Below are positions 139 through 26,160 of a DNA stretch of 64,000 bases, piece by piece (the stretch's first letter is position 1; each line of letters begins with the position of its first letter). The DNA lies in assembly GCF_030013205.1 (NCBI RefSeq), contig NZ_CP122648.1. One strand, 5' to 3'. This DNA comes from Escherichia coli. Lineage in GTDB: Bacteria; Pseudomonadota; Gammaproteobacteria; Enterobacterales; Enterobacteriaceae. The position numbers and the translations under genes are program-made. Under the pieces are notes generated by a model. The model was not told where the DNA came from, ran no database searches, and worked only from the letters and a program-made list of their open reading frames with translations.

Positions 139-3100
139 TTAGTCATTTTGTTGACAGAAAACAGCTATCTCCTGGTCCAGCTCTGCAATGTGTTCTTTAA
201 CAGAGTTCAGCAACTTAAGAATTTCAGGCTTGCTGTCATCTGAAACGGGCGTTATTTCTAACTGATGGCTAAGATTAATCAACTTTTGCAAATTCAGGAT
301 GTTAGCCGCACCGTGGATGCGATGAATACACTGATGGAAAGTTCTGTTATCGCCAGCTTCTAACGCATGAAACGCAGCGGGTAGATCTTTATGCGTTTCA
401 TGCTGGAAAGTCATGAGAATCTCCTGCATCAGTTGTAGATCGTTCGCCGTATTATTTTTCAGGGCCTCGATATCAAGGTGGCGATACTGAGGTGCAATAG
501 GCGCAACCTGGTGTAACTGACTTAAATGTGTTTTCATTACATCCAGGGTCAACGGTTTGAACAAACATAAGTTCATGCCGCAATTTAACCCTTTTTCACG
601 TTCGTTAGCCTGTGCGTTGGCTGTAAGCCCCCAGATGGGTAAGGAAGAATTTTGCTCACGGAGTTTCCGAGTCAACTCAAAACCATCCATATTCGGCATA
701 TTAACGTCAGTAATAAGCAGATCATAATGTTGCATACTGACTTTGTGTAGCGCTTGCACACCATCAGTGGCTTCATCAACATCATATCCTAATAGGTTTA
801 GCTGGCGTTTGAGTAATAGCCTGTTGGTCGGATGATCATCCGCGATTAATATGCTCAACTTTTCAGGGAGTGTCATGGGTTGTTCTGCTTTTGCCTCGAC
901 AGTCGCCACTTGTTGGGTAATTTCTACCGGGATTGTGATCGTAAATGTCGTTCCTATGCCTGGATGACTTTCTAATGACAAATCGCCCTGCATGTTTTTA
1001 ATTAATTCTTTGCAGATTATTAAGCCTAAACCAGAACCTGTTTGCTGACGACCTGCACTTGTTTGGCTATAACGTTTAAACAGTTGTTGTTGTTCTTCCT
1101 GTGATAATCCACTTCCAGAATCCATAATCGTCATTTTGATTACAGCGTGGTTGTCATCAATGTTAACCAGGGAGGTCGTAATTTTTACTGCACCCTCGGT
1201 GGTAAATTTGAGAGCATTGCTCAGTAAATTAGATAAGACCTGCTTAAACGCCTGAGGGTCGATCTTAACCAGGTAATGTTCAGGAAACGTACTGCTGCAA
1301 CTTAATGCGATCGATTTGCTTGCAGCAATCGCACCGAAAGAGTGACAAGTGTTCTGGACTAAAGTAGGGATGTCGACCCATTGTGGTTGAAGTTGATAGT
1401 TACCCGACTCAATTTTGTCGACATCAAGGATTTCACCAATTAAGCCGAGGAGTGATTGTCCGGTGGCGTAGGCAAGTGAAATCGCCTCCACCCGTTGCTC
1501 CTTGCTAAGACCAGAACCCGACAGAAGTTCCAGGAAGCCCATAATGGAGCTTATTGGTGTTCTTATTTCGTGACTCATTGTTGCCAGAAACTGACTTTTT
1601 GCGACAGTTGCATTGATCGCTTTATTTCTCTCTACTTCGAGAGCGTGAATTAAATCACGCGTCTCGGTAATATCTTGCCAACCACAAATATAAACAGCAT
1701 GATCGCTGGCTGGCAGATTGCATAATGTATGCCAGTGATTAATGCATCTTTTCTCGATGCCATTATCAATTTCAAATACCTGTGTGTATATTGTTCGATT
1801 TTCTTTCGTTTCTGCTGTGACTTCATGCGCATTAGAAAAAACATCTTTAAAGGGTGAGTCACTGTTTTCTAATGGTAACATTGCATTTTTGTAGTAATCC
1901 GCAGTGAAATAATGTTCAAAAGCACTATTATGACTAATGACATTACCTTGCCAGTTTACAACATAAGTTGGATTCGGTAAGGAATCCGAGAGTGCTTTTC
2001 GGAATGATATTTGGTTTTCTAAATCACCCTGAATGACTTTACGACGACGAACTGAGCGTAACAGGTAGAATCCCCATAAAAGGCTACTGCCAACTAATAA
2101 AACGGATAATGTCGTGACAATATAAAATTGCTCGCTATAGAGGTCCCATGTGTCAATGGTCACATTGGGCATTTTAATCCATTTTTCCGTCAGGCGCAGA
2201 ACTTCGCTTGGGGGAATTGCATTCAGTGCTTTATTAATAATATCCTTAAGTTCCGGTTCTCCGCGAGGAAAAGCGAACGAAAGCGATGCATTCGGAACGC
2301 CGGGAATAAGAAAATGATAAAGTTCATTAGGATAGTAATGGTCGATCATGTAACGTGAATTTAACTGTGTCGCGACCAGAGCATCAAGTTCGCCTTCTTT
2401 AACCTTGTGAAATGCAGCGCTTGCGTTATCGACTTTTATCCACTCTACCTCCGGATACATCTCTTTTAATTGCGAATGAAGCTCATAATAATAGGGAATG
2501 GCAACTTTCATTCCTTTTTTTAATGTTTGTTCACTGTCAGGCGCTTTTTGCATGACAAAAACGTAAGGCGTTGTTATGAAGGCTTCAGCAAATAAAACAT
2601 TATTTTCTCTATCTTCACTATAAATAGCGGCGGGCAATATATCCCATCCACCGGGGTTAAGCTGTGTCCCCGCATGAATATTGTGTGAAACGGTGATCGG
2701 AGAAAAATTTAAACCTGTTTGCAAGGTAATAATATTAAGAATATCACCCATCACGCCCCGAACTGAGCCAGTTTCATCTGTCATAGAATAGGGTGGCGAG
2801 TAAGGATTTTCCAGCACCTTTAAATCGGGATGCTGCTTAATCCACTGTTTTTCATGTTCAGTGAGTTCTAATGGTTTGTTCAGAAAGGCCAGGTTTCCTG
2901 TATCAAGCCAATTTTGTGATACTTCATAGCGAACTTCATTTGTTAAAGCATCAACAAATCGATTGAGTACTTCATTAAGAACGACTGAATCTTTTCTGGT
3001 TAAGAAAAAGTTATATTGACGCGGCGAGTTATAATATTTCACTACATTTAAGGAGTGAGTGAAATAGCGGGAAATCATACTGCTGGTAATAATGTTACTA

Positions 3101-3732
3101 CCAATAAAGTAATCATTCTGTCCGGCTGAGACGGATGCTAATGCCTGATATAAATTTGTAAAAGAGATAATTGTTGCTTTTGGAAATGATTGATGAATTA
3201 CCTCATCTGGAGGGTAATTTGCTACCCGAGCAATATTTACTGGTTTTGATGAGGTAAGCGGTCTCATTGAATCGTGAAGGGTGGTGACCAGCGCCGGAAA
3301 GGTAATTATCAGCGGTTTGGTTGCAGCAATGTCATCATTAAGAGGCGGCGAAGCAACTAAATGTGATAACACTATATCGACTTCCCCTTCTGTAAGCGCG
3401 TCCATTGCTTTTTGATGATCTGCGTATTCCCGGAGTGTTAATTTGATATTTAACGCTCTTTTTAAAAGATTTAAATAATCAGCATTAATACCACGAACCC
3501 GTTGCTGCGAATCGGTATGCAACAAAGTAGCCGTTTGGGACTTGTGTACTGCAATCACAAGATTTTTTTTGCTCGCTAACCAACGTAATTCCTTGTTGCT
3601 CAGACGTAGTGGATCAAGCGTGACACGGTTGTTACTACTGATGCCACGATATTCGATGTAATCTTCGTCTGCGAAACTTATGGTCGACCAAAGACCACAA
3701 CAGAGAAGAATAATATAGGGTAAAAACTTCAT
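139..3732 (-). CDS. evgS: Hybrid sensor histidine kinase EvgS (two periplasmic solute-binding domains, HisKA/HATPase, receiver, HPt)
   Basis: 1197-aa ORF with HEIRTP H-box, receiver domain and C-terminal HPt; immediately downstream of evgA on the same strand. Confidence 0.95.
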   Translation of the reverse strand: MKFLPYIILLCCGLWSTISFADEDYIEYRGISSNNRVTLDPLRLSNKELRWLASKKNLVIAVHKSQTATLLHTDSQQRVRGINADYLNLLKRALNIKLTLREYADHQKAMDALTEGEVDIVLSHLVASPPLNDDIAATKPLIITFPALVTTLHDSMRPLTSSKPVNIARVANYPPDEVIHQSFPKATIISFTNLYQALASVSAGQNDYFIGSNIITSSMISRYFTHSLNVVKYYNSPRQYNFFLTRKDSVVLNEVLNRFVDALTNEVRYEVSQNWLDTGNLAFLNKPLELTEHEKQWIKQHPDLKVLENPYSPPYSMTDETGSVRGVMGDILNIITLQTGLNFSPITVSHNIHAGTQLNPGGWDILPAAIYSEDRENNVLFAEAFITTPYVFVMQKAPDSEQTLKKGMKVAIPYYYELHSQLKEMYPEVEWIKVDNASAAFHKVKEGELDALVATQLNSRYMIDHYYPNELYHFLIPGVPNASLSFAFPRGEPELKDIINKALNAIPPSEVLRLTEKWIKMPNVTIDTWDLYSEQFYIVTTLSVLLVGSSLLWGFYLLRSVRRRKVIQGDLENQISFRKALSDSLPNPTYVVNWQGNVISHNSAFEHYFTADYYKNAMLPLENSDSPFKDVFSNAHEVTAETKENRTIYTQVFEIDNGIEKRCINHWHTLCNLPASDHAVYICGWQDITETRDLIHALEVERNKAINATVAKSQFLATMSHEIRTPISSIMGFLELLSGSGLSKEQRVEAISLAYATGQSLLGLIGEILDVDKIESGNYQLQPQWVDIPTLVQNTCHSFGAIAASKSIALSCSSTFPEHYLVKIDPQAFKQVLSNLLSNALKFTTEGAVKITTSLVNIDDNHAVIKMTIMDSGSGLSQEEQQQLFKRYSQTSAGRQQTGSGLGLIICKELIKNMQGDLSLESHPGIGTTFTITIPVEITQQVATVEAKAEQPMTLPEKLSILIADDHPTNRLLLKRQLNLLGYDVDEATDGVQALHKVSMQHYDLLITDVNMPNMDGFELTRKLREQNSSLPIWGLTANAQANEREKGLNCGMNLCLFKPLTLDVMKTHLSQLHQVAPIAPQYRHLDIEALKNNTANDLQLMQEILMTFQHETHKDLPAAFHALEAGDNRTFHQCIHRIHGAANILNLQKLINLSHQLEITPVSDDSKPEILKLLNSVKEHIAELDQEIAVFCQQND

Positions 3733-3736
3733 GTGG

Positions 3737-4351
3737 TTAGCCGATTTTGTTACGTTGTGCGAATGTGTAAAGATCCATCAGTGATTTACATTCTAATTTT
3801 TCCATCAGGCGACTTTTATAAGTGCTGACAGTTTTGTTGCTGATGAACATTTTTTCCGCAATGTCATTATTATCCTTGCCATCAAGAATATATCGCATGA
3901 CACTAATTTCTTGTTTCGATAAGGAGTCGAGTTTTTGCTGGTCGGACGTTAAACTTCCAACAAACCGGTTGAGAGAGAAGGGGAAATAGCAGTAGCCATT
4001 TTTTGCAGCTTCAATAGCCGCAATGATATTGTTCATGCCTTCTTTTTTACTCACGAATCCATTAGCGCCAGCATCAGCACAATGTTTCCCGTAAAAATGG
4101 TCATTTTTAGCGGAGACGATAATAATAATTCCGCTATATTGGCGCTTCCTCAGCGTTTCTAACACCTGGATACCGTTAACTCCGGGGATATCGACATCAA
4201 TGATGACGATATCAGGTTTAAGTGTTTCCACCCGCTGAACGGCACTTCCCCCTTCAGTCAACTCCGCTAAGATTTCAATATCGTTTTTGATCAATAAATT
4301 ACGAATTGCTGCGATAGCAAGAGGATGGTCATCAATAATTATTGCGTTCAT
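3737..4351 (-). CDS. evgA: Response regulator EvgA (receiver + LuxR-type HTH)
   Basis: 204-aa ORF MNAIIIDDHPLAIAAIRNLL... with C-terminal LuxR/FixJ HTH; divergent from emrK. Confidence 0.95.
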   Translation of the reverse strand: MNAIIIDDHPLAIAAIRNLLIKNDIEILAELTEGGSAVQRVETLKPDIVIIDVDIPGVNGIQVLETLRKRQYSGIIIIVSAKNDHFYGKHCADAGANGFVSKKEGMNNIIAAIEAAKNGYCYFPFSLNRFVGSLTSDQQKLDSLSKQEISVMRYILDGKDNNDIAEKMFISNKTVSTYKSRLMEKLECKSLMDLYTFAQRNKIG

Positions 4352-4576
4352 AGATTATTCCCTTTGCAATGAAGCATCTCCCTTCTCCCTGTAGTAATAC
4401 AGACATAAGGCATCATCTCATTTTCTCAATAAAAATAAGAAAATTTGAGCTTCCTTTAAGATAATTCGACAAGTATACCATATAAATAGTCGGCATGAAT
4501 GAAATGTCAACAATAAAATCAGGGATTGTACCGATGATTTATAGTTTCACATTAGCACTATAAGTCTTCTCACTAA

Positions 4577-4594
4577 TCCTACATGCGTAAGAAT
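4577..4594. promoter_or_regulatory. Candidate EvgA-binding inverted repeat in the evgA-emrK divergent promoter region
   Basis: 18-bp near-palindrome TCCTACATGCGTAAGAAT in the 415-bp intergenic region; resembles the EvgA box half-sites TTCYTACA/TGTARGAA as I recall them. Confidence 0.4.
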
Positions 4595-4766
4595 TGTATT
4601 GCAAAAGCCACGGTTTAGTCCTCTGTTGTTTTTTTTGCACCTCATTTAAATTAGGCCTCCAACGTTCCTGGGACAATGTGCAACACATGCACTGTGTTTG
4701 ATATGAAGAATGAATACTCTTTTCATTCAATTCATAAATTTCATCTATGCGAAATGAGAGATAATA

Positions 4767-5930
4767 GTGGAACAGATTAATTCAAATAAAAAACATTCTA
4801 ACAGAAGAAAATACTTTTCTTTATTGGCGGTAGTTTTATTTATTGCGTTTTCAGGTGCCTATGCCTATTGGTCAATGGAATTAGAAGACATGATTAGTAC
4901 AGATGATGCCTATGTCACGGGGAATGCAGATCCAATTTCTGCACAAGTTTCAGGCAGCGTCACTGTCGTTAATCATAAAGATACGAACTACGTTCGACAG
5001 GGTGACATTTTAGTCTCACTGGATAAGACTGATGCCACTATCGCACTCAATAAAGCTAAAAATAATCTGGCCAATATTGTTCGGCAAACGAATAAACTGT
5101 ACTTACAGGATAAACAATACAGTGCCGAAGTCGCTTCAGCACGTATTCAGTATCAACAATCTTTAGAAGATTATAACCGTCGTGTACCTTTAGCGAAGCA
5201 GGGGGTTATTTCAAAAGAAACGCTGGAGCATACCAAAGATACGTTAATAAGTAGCAAAGCGGCATTGAATGCCGCTATCCAGGCTTATAAAGCGAATAAA
5301 GCTTTAGTAATGAACACACCATTAAACCGTCAGCCACAAGTCGTTGAAGCGGCGGATGCAACCAAAGAAGCCTGGTTAGCGCTTAAACGTACGGATATTA
5401 AGAGTCCTGTTACCGGCTATATTGCCCAGCGAAGTGTTCAGGTTGGCGAAACAGTGAGTCCCGGACAATCGTTAATGGCTGTTGTACCGGCACGTCAAAT
5501 GTGGGTTAATGCCAACTTTAAAGAAACACAACTCACGGATGTACGGATTGGTCAATCGGTCAATATTATCAGCGATCTTTATGGTGAAAATGTTGTGTTT
5601 CATGGTCGGGTGACAGGGATCAATATGGGAACCGGCAATGCATTCTCCTTATTACCTGCACAAAATGCGACAGGGAACTGGATCAAAATCGTTCAGCGTG
5701 TACCGGTTGAAGTTTCTCTTGATCCAAAAGAACTCATGGAACATCCCTTACGTATTGGTTTATCGATGACAGCAACTATTGATACGAAGAACGAAGACAT
5801 TGCCGAGATGCCTGAGCTGGCTTCAACCGTGACGTCCATGCCTGCTTATACCAGTAAGGCTTTAGTTATCGATACCAGTCCGATAGAAAAAGAAATTAGC
5901 AACATTATTTCGCATAATGGACAACTTTAA
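4767..5930 (+). CDS. emrK: Multidrug efflux membrane fusion protein EmrK
   Basis: 387-aa ORF with N-terminal TM anchor and HlyD-family periplasmic adaptor features; stop overlaps emrY start. Confidence 0.95.
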   Translation: MEQINSNKKHSNRRKYFSLLAVVLFIAFSGAYAYWSMELEDMISTDDAYVTGNADPISAQVSGSVTVVNHKDTNYVRQGDILVSLDKTDATIALNKAKNNLANIVRQTNKLYLQDKQYSAEVASARIQYQQSLEDYNRRVPLAKQGVISKETLEHTKDTLISSKAALNAAIQAYKANKALVMNTPLNRQPQVVEAADATKEAWLALKRTDIKSPVTGYIAQRSVQVGETVSPGQSLMAVVPARQMWVNANFKETQLTDVRIGQSVNIISDLYGENVVFHGRVTGINMGTGNAFSLLPAQNATGNWIKIVQRVPVEVSLDPKELMEHPLRIGLSMTATIDTKNEDIAEMPELASTVTSMPAYTSKALVIDTSPIEKEISNIISHNGQL

Positions 5931-7468
5931 TGGCAATCACTAAATCAACTCCGGCACCATTAACCGGTGGGACGTTATGGTGCGTCACTATTGCATTGTC
6001 ATTAGCGACGTTTATGCAAATGTTGGATTCCACTATTTCTAACGTCGCAATACCGACAATATCTGGCTTTCTGGGAGCATCAACAGACGAAGGCACCTGG
6101 GTTATCACTTCGTTTGGCGTAGCAAATGCCATTGCGATCCCTGTTACCGGCAGGCTGGCACAAAGAATAGGCGAATTAAGATTATTTTTACTTTCAGTAA
6201 CCTTTTTTTCGCTATCTTCATTAATGTGTAGCCTATCGACCAATCTTGATGTGCTGATATTTTTTAGAGTCGTTCAGGGGTTAATGGCGGGGCCGTTAAT
6301 TCCACTGTCACAGAGTTTATTATTAAGGAATTATCCGCCAGAAAAAAGAACATTTGCTCTGGCATTATGGTCAATGACCGTAATTATCGCGCCGATATGT
6401 GGGCCGATATTGGGTGGCTACATTTGCGATAACTTTAGCTGGGGTTGGATATTTTTAATCAATGTCCCAATGGGGATTATCGTCCTGACATTATGCTTAA
6501 CCTTACTTAAAGGAAGAGAAACTGAGACTTCACCGGTCAAAATGAATCTACCAGGACTGACCCTGTTAGTGCTCGGTGTTGGTGGCTTGCAAATTATGCT
6601 CGATAAAGGGCGCGATCTGGATTGGTTCAACTCGAGTACAATAATAATACTAACAGTAGTGTCAGTTATTTCTCTGATCTCTTTAGTCATTTGGGAGTCG
6701 ACCTCAGAGAACTCGATTCTTGACCTCAGTTTGTTTAAGTCCCGTAATTTCACCATTGGTATTGTGAGTATCACATGCGCGTATTTATTTTACTCTGGGG
6801 CAATAGTCCTTATGCCGCAATTACTCCAGGAAACGATGGGGTATAATGCGATATGGGCCGGACTTGCCTATGCGCCCATCGGCATCATGCCGCTATTAAT
6901 ATCGCCTTTGATAGGACGTTATGGCAACAAAATTGATATGCGGTTGTTGGTGACATTTAGTTTTTTAATGTATGCGGTTTGCTATTACTGGCGTTCTGTG
7001 ACATTTATGCCAACGATTGATTTTACAGGCATCATTTTGCCACAGTTTTTCCAGGGATTCGCCGTCGCCTGTTTCTTTTTACCCTTAACAACGATTTCGT
7101 TTTCAGGTTTGCCAGATAATAAATTTGCCAATGCCTCGAGTATGAGTAATTTTTTTCGTACCTTGTCAGGATCAGTTGGTACGTCGTTGACAATGACGCT
7201 GTGGGGACGACGCGAATCGTTACACCATAGTCAGTTGACAGCAACCATCGATCAATTAAACCCCGTGTTTAATTCATCGTCACAAATTATGGATAAATAC
7301 TATGGTTCGCTTTCAGGGGTTCTTAATGAAATTAATAATGAAATAACTCAGCAGTCACTTTCAATTTCTGCAAATGAGATTTTCCGTATGGCGGCTATTG
7401 CTTTTATCTTACTTACAGTTTTGGTTTGGTTTGCGAAACCGCCGTTTACAGCGAAAGGCGTTGGGTGA
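5930..7468 (+). CDS. emrY: MFS multidrug efflux transporter EmrY (14-TM)
   Basis: 512-aa polytopic membrane ORF, translationally coupled to emrK. Confidence 0.95.
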   Translation: MAITKSTPAPLTGGTLWCVTIALSLATFMQMLDSTISNVAIPTISGFLGASTDEGTWVITSFGVANAIAIPVTGRLAQRIGELRLFLLSVTFFSLSSLMCSLSTNLDVLIFFRVVQGLMAGPLIPLSQSLLLRNYPPEKRTFALALWSMTVIIAPICGPILGGYICDNFSWGWIFLINVPMGIIVLTLCLTLLKGRETETSPVKMNLPGLTLLVLGVGGLQIMLDKGRDLDWFNSSTIIILTVVSVISLISLVIWESTSENSILDLSLFKSRNFTIGIVSITCAYLFYSGAIVLMPQLLQETMGYNAIWAGLAYAPIGIMPLLISPLIGRYGNKIDMRLLVTFSFLMYAVCYYWRSVTFMPTIDFTGIILPQFFQGFAVACFFLPLTTISFSGLPDNKFANASSMSNFFRTLSGSVGTSLTMTLWGRRESLHHSQLTATIDQLNPVFNSSSQIMDKYYGSLSGVLNEINNEITQQSLSISANEIFRMAAIAFILLTVLVWFAKPPFTAKGVG

Positions 7469-24801: not shown

Positions 24802-26160
24802 CTACATGTAATATCTAGTAATAATGGAAGGAATCATTGCGTTCAACGAAACAATTAACATTATAACTGTGATAATGTACGCAATCATTTGTTTTTTCTT
24901 GTTCTGGCTCATTAACAAGAAGGCGGAAATAATTACAGGAATCACAAAGTATCGCCCCTGAATACCAATTATAACATCGGTAGGAAATTTTGAATATTGC
25001 ACAAGTAATGCGCAAAAAATCAATGCTGCTGACCCAAGTGACACTATAGCCACTGATAAGGAAAAGAATATATGTTTTTTGATTTCCGAATAAGAAATAG
25101 ATAATGATATTAATGCAACTATTACTACAAAAGAAACAATATAAAGATAGGTTGGCATCCATATGTCTAGCCACCCCAACTTCCCTACAAAACTCTTGAA
25201 GTAGAATGAACTGCGACCGTAATCAGAAATGGTATTGTAAATTATACTTAAAATTTCAAATGGATGTTTTAAGTAATATGCTATAACCTCGCCTTGACTT
25301 ATTCCAGGGTGGTTTACCCCTCCATCCACGGTTATTGATATTGTTAATCCTATCCATCCTAGAGATAGCACTGCAGCAAAAAATGGAGGTAACAATCTTA
25401 TTTTTGATTGTGAATAATATGCCGCAATGAATGGTAAAATCAACACTGGTATAAGGTTAGCCCTGCTTGAAACTAGAATAAATGCAATAAATGAAATAAA
25501 TATTAAGCAGGTGTCTCCAATCTCCTTTTTCATTGCCCCTCTTGCAAGTAAGCACATCATAAGAACAGACAATGATGTTGTTATACCATCTATAGTTGTT
25601 GCAATGAACTGAAAAAGCATCATCGGCATGACCATAACACATAAAGCAAGTGCTGGTATTCTATATATGCTATTGGCATATATAATGATTGAGATGCAAG
25701 TTATAAATGCCAGAAATCGCGATATTTTATAAGTGTCTAGGATGGATAAATTAAAAGCTTTACCAAACATAATCCCTATTGACTGAGGGATGTATACAGC
25801 GGGGAAGTAAAATGCTGTGTTTGGTATCTCTTTGTATACTTTGTTATCCCCCCAATTTTTCATATCAATGCCTAACATCATTGAATTGGATATTTTCCCA
25901 ACATGTCCATTATTAAATATTTCAAATGAGTCATTTAGAGACTTATCAATGTAACCACCTGACTTAAAACCATCGTTATTATTTAGGGTTATTACCCCGT
26001 TAGTAAGAAGATAAGCGCGTGAAAAATGATGTGGCTCATCAGGGCTCATAAATGGTGGAGTTACAGAACTTATCGCAATATATAAAACAAAAGAAAAGAT
26101 AAATAAAAATAATTTTTTATGTAATGATTTCATTTGGCAATCACTTATCATTAAAAACAA
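24802..26160 (-). CDS. Polytopic membrane glycosyltransferase (GT-C/GtrC-like, serotype-specific O-antigen modification candidate)
   Basis: 452-aa AT-rich multi-TM ORF between gtrA and the GT2 gene; 20-bp overlap with gtrA. Confidence 0.55.
   Translation of the reverse strand: MFLMISDCQMKSLHKKLFLFIFSFVLYIAISSVTPPFMSPDEPHHFSRAYLLTNGVITLNNNDGFKSGGYIDKSLNDSFEIFNNGHVGKISNSMMLGIDMKNWGDNKVYKEIPNTAFYFPAVYIPQSIGIMFGKAFNLSILDTYKISRFLAFITCISIIIYANSIYRIPALALCVMVMPMMLFQFIATTIDGITTSLSVLMMCLLARGAMKKEIGDTCLIFISFIAFILVSSRANLIPVLILPFIAAYYSQSKIRLLPPFFAAVLSLGWIGLTISITVDGGVNHPGISQGEVIAYYLKHPFEILSIIYNTISDYGRSSFYFKSFVGKLGWLDIWMPTYLYIVSFVVIVALISLSISYSEIKKHIFFSLSVAIVSLGSAALIFCALLVQYSKFPTDVIIGIQGRYFVIPVIISAFLLMSQNKKKQMIAYIITVIMLIVSLNAMIPSIITRYYM

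Follow-up and report, generated by a model that had tools for sequence, protein, structure and literature searches.

A known EvgA box in the evgA-emrK divergent control region of Escherichia coli: register, conservation and probable activation of emrKY

In 2003 Masuda and Church reportedly described an 18-bp inverted repeat that recurs in the six upstream regions of seven operons activated by EvgA in E. coli, emrKY/evgAS among them, and are said to have confirmed it by gel shift. Mutations of the repeat that reduce EvgA-dependent expression were reportedly made for ydeP and b1500-ydeO and not for emrK, while binding studies of the emrK/evgA region are said to have been carried out by Kato et al. 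in 2000 and Tanabe et al. in 1998. The site considered here is presumably the same EvgA-binding inverted repeat (half-site TTCPyTACA) already described for the emrK/evgA region. The locus, the regulator and the motif coincide, and nothing of substance is different; the element is already known and its assignment is an ordinary one.

A described counterpart outside this regulon is BvgA of Bordetella, which binds as a phosphorylated dimer to inverted repeats of TTTCCTA-type heptads with a TTCCTA-like core. BvgA-dependent promoters typically combine a high-affinity distal site with cooperative low-affinity sites reaching the -35 region. By analogy, EvgA would be a homologous regulator (NarL/FixJ family, GerE domain) acting on a similar inverted repeat, although the emrK/evgA region contains a single full box and belongs to another organism and another regulon. 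NarL, on 7-2-7 heptamer pairs, and RcsB likewise bind as GerE-domain dimers to short inverted repeats that lie close to the -35 element or overlap it, but the half-site sequences and spacing of their sites are unlike those of the EvgA box. The EvgAS system was named for its similarity to BvgS/BvgA (PMC9496106). EvgS senses mild acidity and alkali metals and phosphorylates EvgA (PMC6393483, PMC8350985, PMC9496106). According to reviews that cite Kato et al. 2000 (PMC8350985, PMC9496106), the emrKY promoter region is a direct target of EvgA binding. Deleting evgA or evgS abolishes the expression of emrK (PMC6393483).

The window, namely the whole 64-kb stretch of E. coli DNA that was analysed, carries the following genes on either side of the control region.

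139-3732, minus strand: evgS, a 1,197-aa ORF identified by RefSeq annotation, hybrid sensor kinase phosphorylating EvgA
3737-4351, minus strand: evgA, with its ATG at 4351, response regulator with Response_reg and GerE (LuxR-type helix-turn-helix) domains
4348-4377, minus strand: evgL, ORF for the leader peptide MLHCKGNNL*, with a stop codon overlapping the ATG of evgA
4767-5930, plus strand: emrK, with a GTG start, named from RefSeq and containing Pfam membrane-fusion domains
5930-7468, plus strand: emrY, identified by its ORF and RefSeq name, forming with emrK an efflux operon (4767-7468)

According to the ORF list, the gap between the divergent evgA and emrK genes is non-coding and comprises 415 bp (4352-4766), exactly the bounds given in the original prediction; the assignment of the two flanking genes was likewise borne out by the ORFs and by the RefSeq names in E. 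coli strains CFSAN018748 and K-12. The stretch 3700-4900 is 100% identical to that of CFSAN018748, for which RefSeq lists evgS, evgA and emrK, and it was found in 5,398 of 5,426 complete E. coli genomes; a 91-bp core is present in 5,397 of the 5,426. K-12 MG1655 has the same gene order as the window, plus the nine-codon evgL (annotated as b4781), which is translationally coupled to evgA (PMC11210196). The intergenic region has a G+C content of 34%, against 47% for the whole window.

The cognate regulator expected for an operator of the NarL/FixJ family is encoded at the locus itself, since EvgA contains both a receiver domain (PF00072, Response_reg, 1.5e-27) and a GerE domain (PF00196, 2.8e-22). 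The EvgA of the window matches the solved EvgA structures 5F64 and 8ZWN (E about 1e-132), and its nearest solved relatives other than EvgA are NarL (E = 5.5e-23) and RcsB (E = 6e-14). A search with EvgA, using one genome per species, yielded two divergent orthologous emrK-evgAS loci, designated L004 (labelled E. coli SCPM-O-B-8794) and L005 (labelled Yersinia vastinensis IP38594), and four distant evgAS-like loci. In addition, a 398-bp contig labelled Rhizobium cauense HU25 (L009) encodes EvgA residues 1-114 with 100% identity to the E. coli protein, and almost certainly represents E. coli contamination of that assembly.

The original prediction had placed a near-palindrome at 4577-4594, between the two divergent operons. 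The site is real, but the proposed register lies one base to the right of the symmetric one: the sequence at 4577-4594, TCCTACATGCGTAAGAAT, is self-complementary at only two of nine positions, while the symmetric register, 4576-4593, reads ATCCTACATGCGTAAGAA, that is, ATCCTACA-TG-CGTAAGAA, with five of nine pairs complementary. The element and its parts are as follows.

4576-4593: EvgA box, 18-bp imperfect inverted repeat ATCCTACA-TG-CGTAAGAA, supported by motif match, weight matrix and conservation
4576-4583, plus strand: emrK-distal half-site ATCCTACA (consensus TTCYTACA), in which CCTACA at 4578-4583 is invariant in nine of nine sequences
4586-4593, plus strand: emrK-proximal half-site CGTAAGAA (consensus TGTARGAA), in which GTAAGAA is invariant

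The half-sites ATCCTACA and TTCTTACG, the latter being the reverse complement of CGTAAGAA, agree at five of eight positions and are inverted across a 2-bp spacer, an arrangement suited to a symmetric dimer, although the palindromy of 5/9 is imperfect and not significant alone. On the emrK side 173 bp separate the box from the GTG start, and on the other side its first base is 224 bp beyond the evgA ATG. Palindromy was rejected as evidence of function, which corrects this part of the prediction: five complementary pairs of nine are at chance level, being reached by 5% of the 18-mers of the window and by 23 of the 398 18-mers of the intergenic region. As a match to the EvgA motif, on the other hand, the same site is highly non-random.

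Two other palindromes of the intergenic region deserve mention in their own right. The best one, ACCTCATTTAAATTAGGC (4639-4656, 7/9 pairs), lies in the presumed emrK leader and is kept in E. coli, partly in L004 and not in L005. The second, CCCTGTAGTAATACAGAC (4387-4404, 6/9 pairs), is located in the transcribed evgA leader upstream of evgL, next to a block (4399-4411) that is invariant. It may form an RNA hairpin with a part in the control of translation by CsrA and evgL that PMC11210196 describes.

The EvgA consensus, taken to be TTCYTACANNTGTARGAA (TTCYTACA-NN-TGTARGAA), was then tested against the sequence. The 18-bp inverted repeat at 4576-4593, with two mismatches, is the sole match with no more than two mismatches in the 64 kb, where 0.05 would be expected according to dinucleotide shuffles. 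A leave-one-out weight matrix was built from six sites, those of frc, yfdX, safA, ydeP and yegR, with the emrK/evgA site excluded; with this matrix 4576-4593 ranked first among 127,966 window positions, scoring 15.4-16.2 bits against 10.7 bits for the next best. The second-best position of the window, 24969-24986 (TTATAACATCGGTAGGAA, 10-11 bits, three mismatches), is inside a 452-aa ORF (24802-26160, minus strand) and is probably a chance match. Within the intergenic region a second full box, as at yfdX, was sought and none was found, the next-best 18-mer there scoring 1.6 bits.

Because a consensus fixed in advance carried a risk of circularity, a consensus-free search was also run. Every 18-mer from the six upstream regions was tried in turn as a seed, its score being taken from the best match it reached in the remaining five. 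The EvgA motif came out on top, with 71 of 90 identities; over 100 dinucleotide-shuffled sets the mean was 64.2 (sd 1.1) and the maximum 67. The best seed from the emrK/evgA region was 4577-4594, with a score of 69.

The motif is present upstream of every other operon listed in the literature as EvgA-activated, namely frc, yfdX, safA-ydeO, ydeP and yegR, and inverted repeats bound by EvgA have been marked before yfdX and yfdWUVE (PMC3720670). The boxes identified in K-12 compare with the consensus as follows.

frc box: 0 mismatches
yfdX boxes, two sites: 1 and 3 mismatches
safA-ydeO box: 1 mismatch
yegR box: 1 mismatch
ydeP box: 2 mismatches
emrK/evgA box: 2 mismatches

The boxes of ydeP, safA-ydeO, yegR, frc and yfdX share the same 18-bp architecture and lie 98-261 bp upstream of the start codon. 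At ydeP, safA and frc, and in the proximal yfdX box, the GTAAGAA half is promoter-proximal, as it is in the emrK box when this is read towards emrK. Two features set the emrK/evgA box apart: it is the most degenerate of the set, with 16 bits against 19-28 bits for the others and with its two mismatches including C for T at position 11, and it alone is shared by two divergent operons. An apparent further element in common, AGTCYT, occurs at +24 to +29 past the box in emrK, ydeP and safA; it was set aside, as the other landmarks are offset by 4-5 nt.

Constraint on the element was assessed in an alignment of nine sequences, comprising the window, K-12, five other E. coli lineages, and the orthologous loci L004 and L005. 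Both CCTACA and GTAAGAATTGTATT are invariant in this alignment, and the changes within the box are confined to the two outermost bases (AT, TT or TG), spacer base 4584 (T, G or C) and position 4586, where E. coli has C while L004 and L005 have the consensus base, T. In a four-sequence alignment, in which 57% of the columns are invariant, GTAAGAATTGTATT (4587-4600) forms the longest invariant run of the intergenic region; other long runs coincide with the ribosome-binding site of emrK and with parts of the evgA leader, evgL among them. Judged from these alignments, the box region is the most constrained piece of the intergenic region that does not look transcribed, and its half-sites have been retained by the orthologous loci even though the non-coding DNA on either side has diverged.

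Both orthologous loci carry stronger boxes. In L004, whose EvgS and EmrK are 92% and 96% identical to those of the window, the box read towards emrK is TTCCTACAGGTGTAAGAA, a perfect match. In L005, where the identities are 94% for EvgA, 83% for EmrK and 82% for EvgS, the box is TGCCTACACGTGTAAGAA, with one mismatch. These perfect or near-perfect boxes score 23-27 bits, against 16 bits and two mismatches in E. coli. The L005 cluster lies on a 590-kb contig (NZ_CACVAF010000001.1) and its intergenic region is partly alignable; it is closer than would be expected for Yersinia versus Escherichia, and horizontal transfer or mislabelling is possible.

Within E. coli, the K-12 box, ATCCTACAGGCGTAAGAA (NC_000913.3, 2483513-2483530), differs from the copy in the window at one spacer base only, the window strain having T and not G at 4584; just upstream of the box, it has C and not T at 4571. 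The latter position falls in the sequence 4567-4574, which is TTCTCACT in the window and TTCTTACT in K-12 and some other strains, where it makes a third half-site of the EvgA type, one turn of the helix away from the box on its upstream side. The window strain, O157:H7, L004 and L005 all have TTCTCAYT here, and since it is polymorphic this third half-site is probably not required.

The box is situated upstream of an operon whose expression depends on EvgA (PMC6393483). Downstream of it, on the emrK side, two further features can be recognised, both putative and read from the sequence.

4594-4604, plus strand: conserved extension TTGTATTGCAA, containing -35-like TTGTAT and TTGCAA, putative emrK -35 region
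4622-4627, plus strand: weak -10-like TCTGTT, 17 nt after TTGCAA, a low-confidence assignment; it is TCTATT in L005, and TC.TCT.TT is conserved

The promoter-proximal position of the GTAAGAA half, the continuation of the conserved block into TTGTATTGCAA and the -10-like TCTGTT that follows together suggest that the dimer activates a weak promoter just downstream of the box. A scan of 4300-4820 with the sigma-70 consensus revealed no promoter beside the box and a single promoter-like site (4490-4519, plus strand), which is below the expectation from shuffled sequence; such a scan is uninformative here, because the promoter would be activator-dependent. The transcription start dataset of Kim et al. 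2012 contains no emrK start, and none for ydeP, ydeO, yegR or yfdX. A full-text search of the literature, with the primary binding papers outside its reach, returned no EvgA footprint coordinates for the emrK/evgA region. About 75 nt before the emrK start codon there is also a terminator-like hairpin, GTGCA-ACACA-TGCAC followed by TGTGTTTGAT (4678-4692, plus strand), which is not kept in L005.

The original prediction of a candidate EvgA box that activates emrKY is supported by the motif match, the boxes shared with co-regulated promoters, the conservation of the half-sites and the reviews of EvgA binding. We put at roughly 0.9 the probability that 4576-4593 is an EvgA operator in the evgA/emrK divergent control region through which emrKY is activated, binding at these particular bases being deduced from the reported studies together with the sequence. 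In the proposed sequence of events, mildly acidic pH and alkali metals would lead EvgS to phosphorylate EvgA, and a dimer of EvgA~P would bind the inverted half-sites ATCCTACA and CGTAAGAA via its GerE/LuxR-type helix-turn-helix domains. The bound dimer would then recruit or stabilise RNA polymerase, by a mode of contact that we infer, at a weak promoter starting right after the proximal half-site, with TTGTATTGCAA as the candidate -35 region. With a predicted start in the vicinity of 4630-4640, the centre of the box would fall at roughly -45 to -55, and emrKY would be switched on. From its position some 120 bp upstream of the evgA start, the dimer may also give evgAS transcription a modest boost, an effect that would be at most small under physiological induction.

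The evgA side of the region has a better defined start, from which the distance to the box can be given.

4465-4477, minus strand: evgA promoter, with the -10 hexamer TATACT (4477 to 4472) and the start at 4465, corresponding to -114 from the ATG

The evgA leader has been taken as -114 to +7 relative to the start codon (PMC11210196). The TATACT hexamer sits 7 nt upstream of the start at 4465, and the box centre (4584.5) is 119.5 bp upstream of that start. Since about 120 bp is far for a direct contact with polymerase, autoregulation of evgA is the weaker claim. Moreover, mild acid leaves the activity of evgA fusions unaltered, in spite of EvgA being 'reported to be autoregulatory' (PMC11210196), and in macrophages, a condition of strong emrK induction by EvgA, evgA mRNA stays at the same level (PMC6393483). 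The original prediction had joined autoregulation to emrKY activation. This half of it is less well founded than the emrKY half, the distance of ~120 bp and the unresponsive evgA counting against it and the boxes upstream of evgA-like genes in distant genera counting for it, and its likelihood lies somewhere between low and even.

Two other observations concern transcription towards evgA. The only start assigned to evgA by Kim et al. 2012 lies 613 nt upstream of the ATG, antisense inside emrK, and has 33 reads; it corresponds to window position 4964 on the minus strand, where the flanking sequence matches exactly (4964-4996, minus strand). Transcription from 4964 would extend across both the EvgA box and the promoter of emrK. 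On the evgA strand there is also a perfect TTGACA at 4505-4510, 27 nt upstream of TATACT and too far to pair with it, which may be part of the second (sigma-70) evgA promoter mentioned in PMC11210196.

The distant evgAS-like loci bear on whether the box could be mainly an autoregulatory operator of evgAS, ancestral to the EvgA-like family, with activation of emrKY being secondary or specific to some lineages. These loci come from Hafnia (L006), Klebsiella (L007), an Enterobacter MAG (L008) and Buttiauxella (L010), their EvgA proteins are 66-71% identical to that of the window, and three of the four have no adjacent emrK homologue. In all four, the best matrix position of the whole 4-6.6 kb locus is found 71-419 bp upstream of the evgA-like gene, which speaks for such an operator. 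Against it, the scores of these matches are no higher than 10-15 bits, and a motif rich in A and T is favoured in intergenic DNA of similar composition. Also in favour of such an origin is an identical 19-nt island, TTCCTACAGCTGTCATCCA, shared upstream of the evgA-like genes of Klebsiella pneumoniae ATCC 13883 (L007, 203-221) and Buttiauxella sp. B2 (L010, 2696-2714), whose flanks are otherwise unalignable; the left half of the island fits the EvgA half-site and the right half does not. Related palindromes are GTCCTACGTATGTAGGCG in Hafnia and TTCCTACGTCTGTAGTCC in the Enterobacter MAG. The report of EvgA autoregulation points the same way, while in E. coli the distance from the evgA start, the unresponsive evgA fusions and mRNA, and the conserved promoter-like sequence that adjoins the box on the emrK side all speak against it. 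A mainly autoregulatory box is on balance unlikely, although it is the most serious of the competing explanations. A self-regulatory role is plausible as an ancestral feature and weakly supported as a strong effect in E. coli. Only tentatively can an evolutionary scenario be suggested in which the box was an ancestral self-regulatory operator, retained without emrKY in Hafnia, Klebsiella and Buttiauxella and co-opted for emrKY in Escherichia, the E. coli copy having been weakened.

Returning to the reading of the box as an EvgA operator for emrKY, the invariant run GTAAGAATTGTATT continues 7 nt past the EvgA 18-mer, indicating constraint beyond the EvgA dimer. This could mean that the block is read by another regulator of the GerE/LuxR family (such as RcsB, GadE, NarL, UhpA or FimZ), or by RNA polymerase alone, and that its likeness to EvgA sites is incidental; a half-site of the TAAGAA/TTCCTA type also occurs in the RcsAB box. 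When the site was compared by eye with the RcsB/RcsAB consensus (TAAGAAT-ATTCCTA), only TAAGAAT at 4588-4594 agreed, the following TGTATTG being mismatched; TAAGAATTGTATTG lacks a matching second half for an RcsB box, and this candidate was rejected. The spacing and orientation of the half-sites are typical of the six other boxes at EvgA-dependent promoters, emrK is strictly dependent on evgA and evgS, and the 7-nt extension is simply explained as a -35 region, all of which makes another reader of the block highly improbable. A functionless near-palindrome arising by chance in AT-rich intergenic DNA is effectively refuted: the chance-level palindromy, the better palindromes nearby and the G+C content of 34% versus 47% would suit it, but not the 0.05 expected motif matches, the first rank among 127,966 positions, the boxes at five co-regulated promoters or the invariant half-sites.

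Control of emrKY by EvgA has been textbook knowledge since 2000-2003, and the present analysis adds nothing to the regulation of E. coli; it does illustrate that a genuine operator between divergent genes can be picked out by reading the sequence alone. Induction of emrKY via EvgSA matters for the survival of Shigella and adherent-invasive E. coli in macrophages (PMC6393483, PMC8350985). What is mildly new is the one-base correction of the register, the phylogenetic footprint in which the half-sites and the adjacent TTGTATT are the constrained bases, the related boxes in other genera, and the weakness of the E. coli box relative to its orthologues. The weaker E. coli box could set a higher threshold of EvgA~P for the efflux pump than for ydeP or safA.
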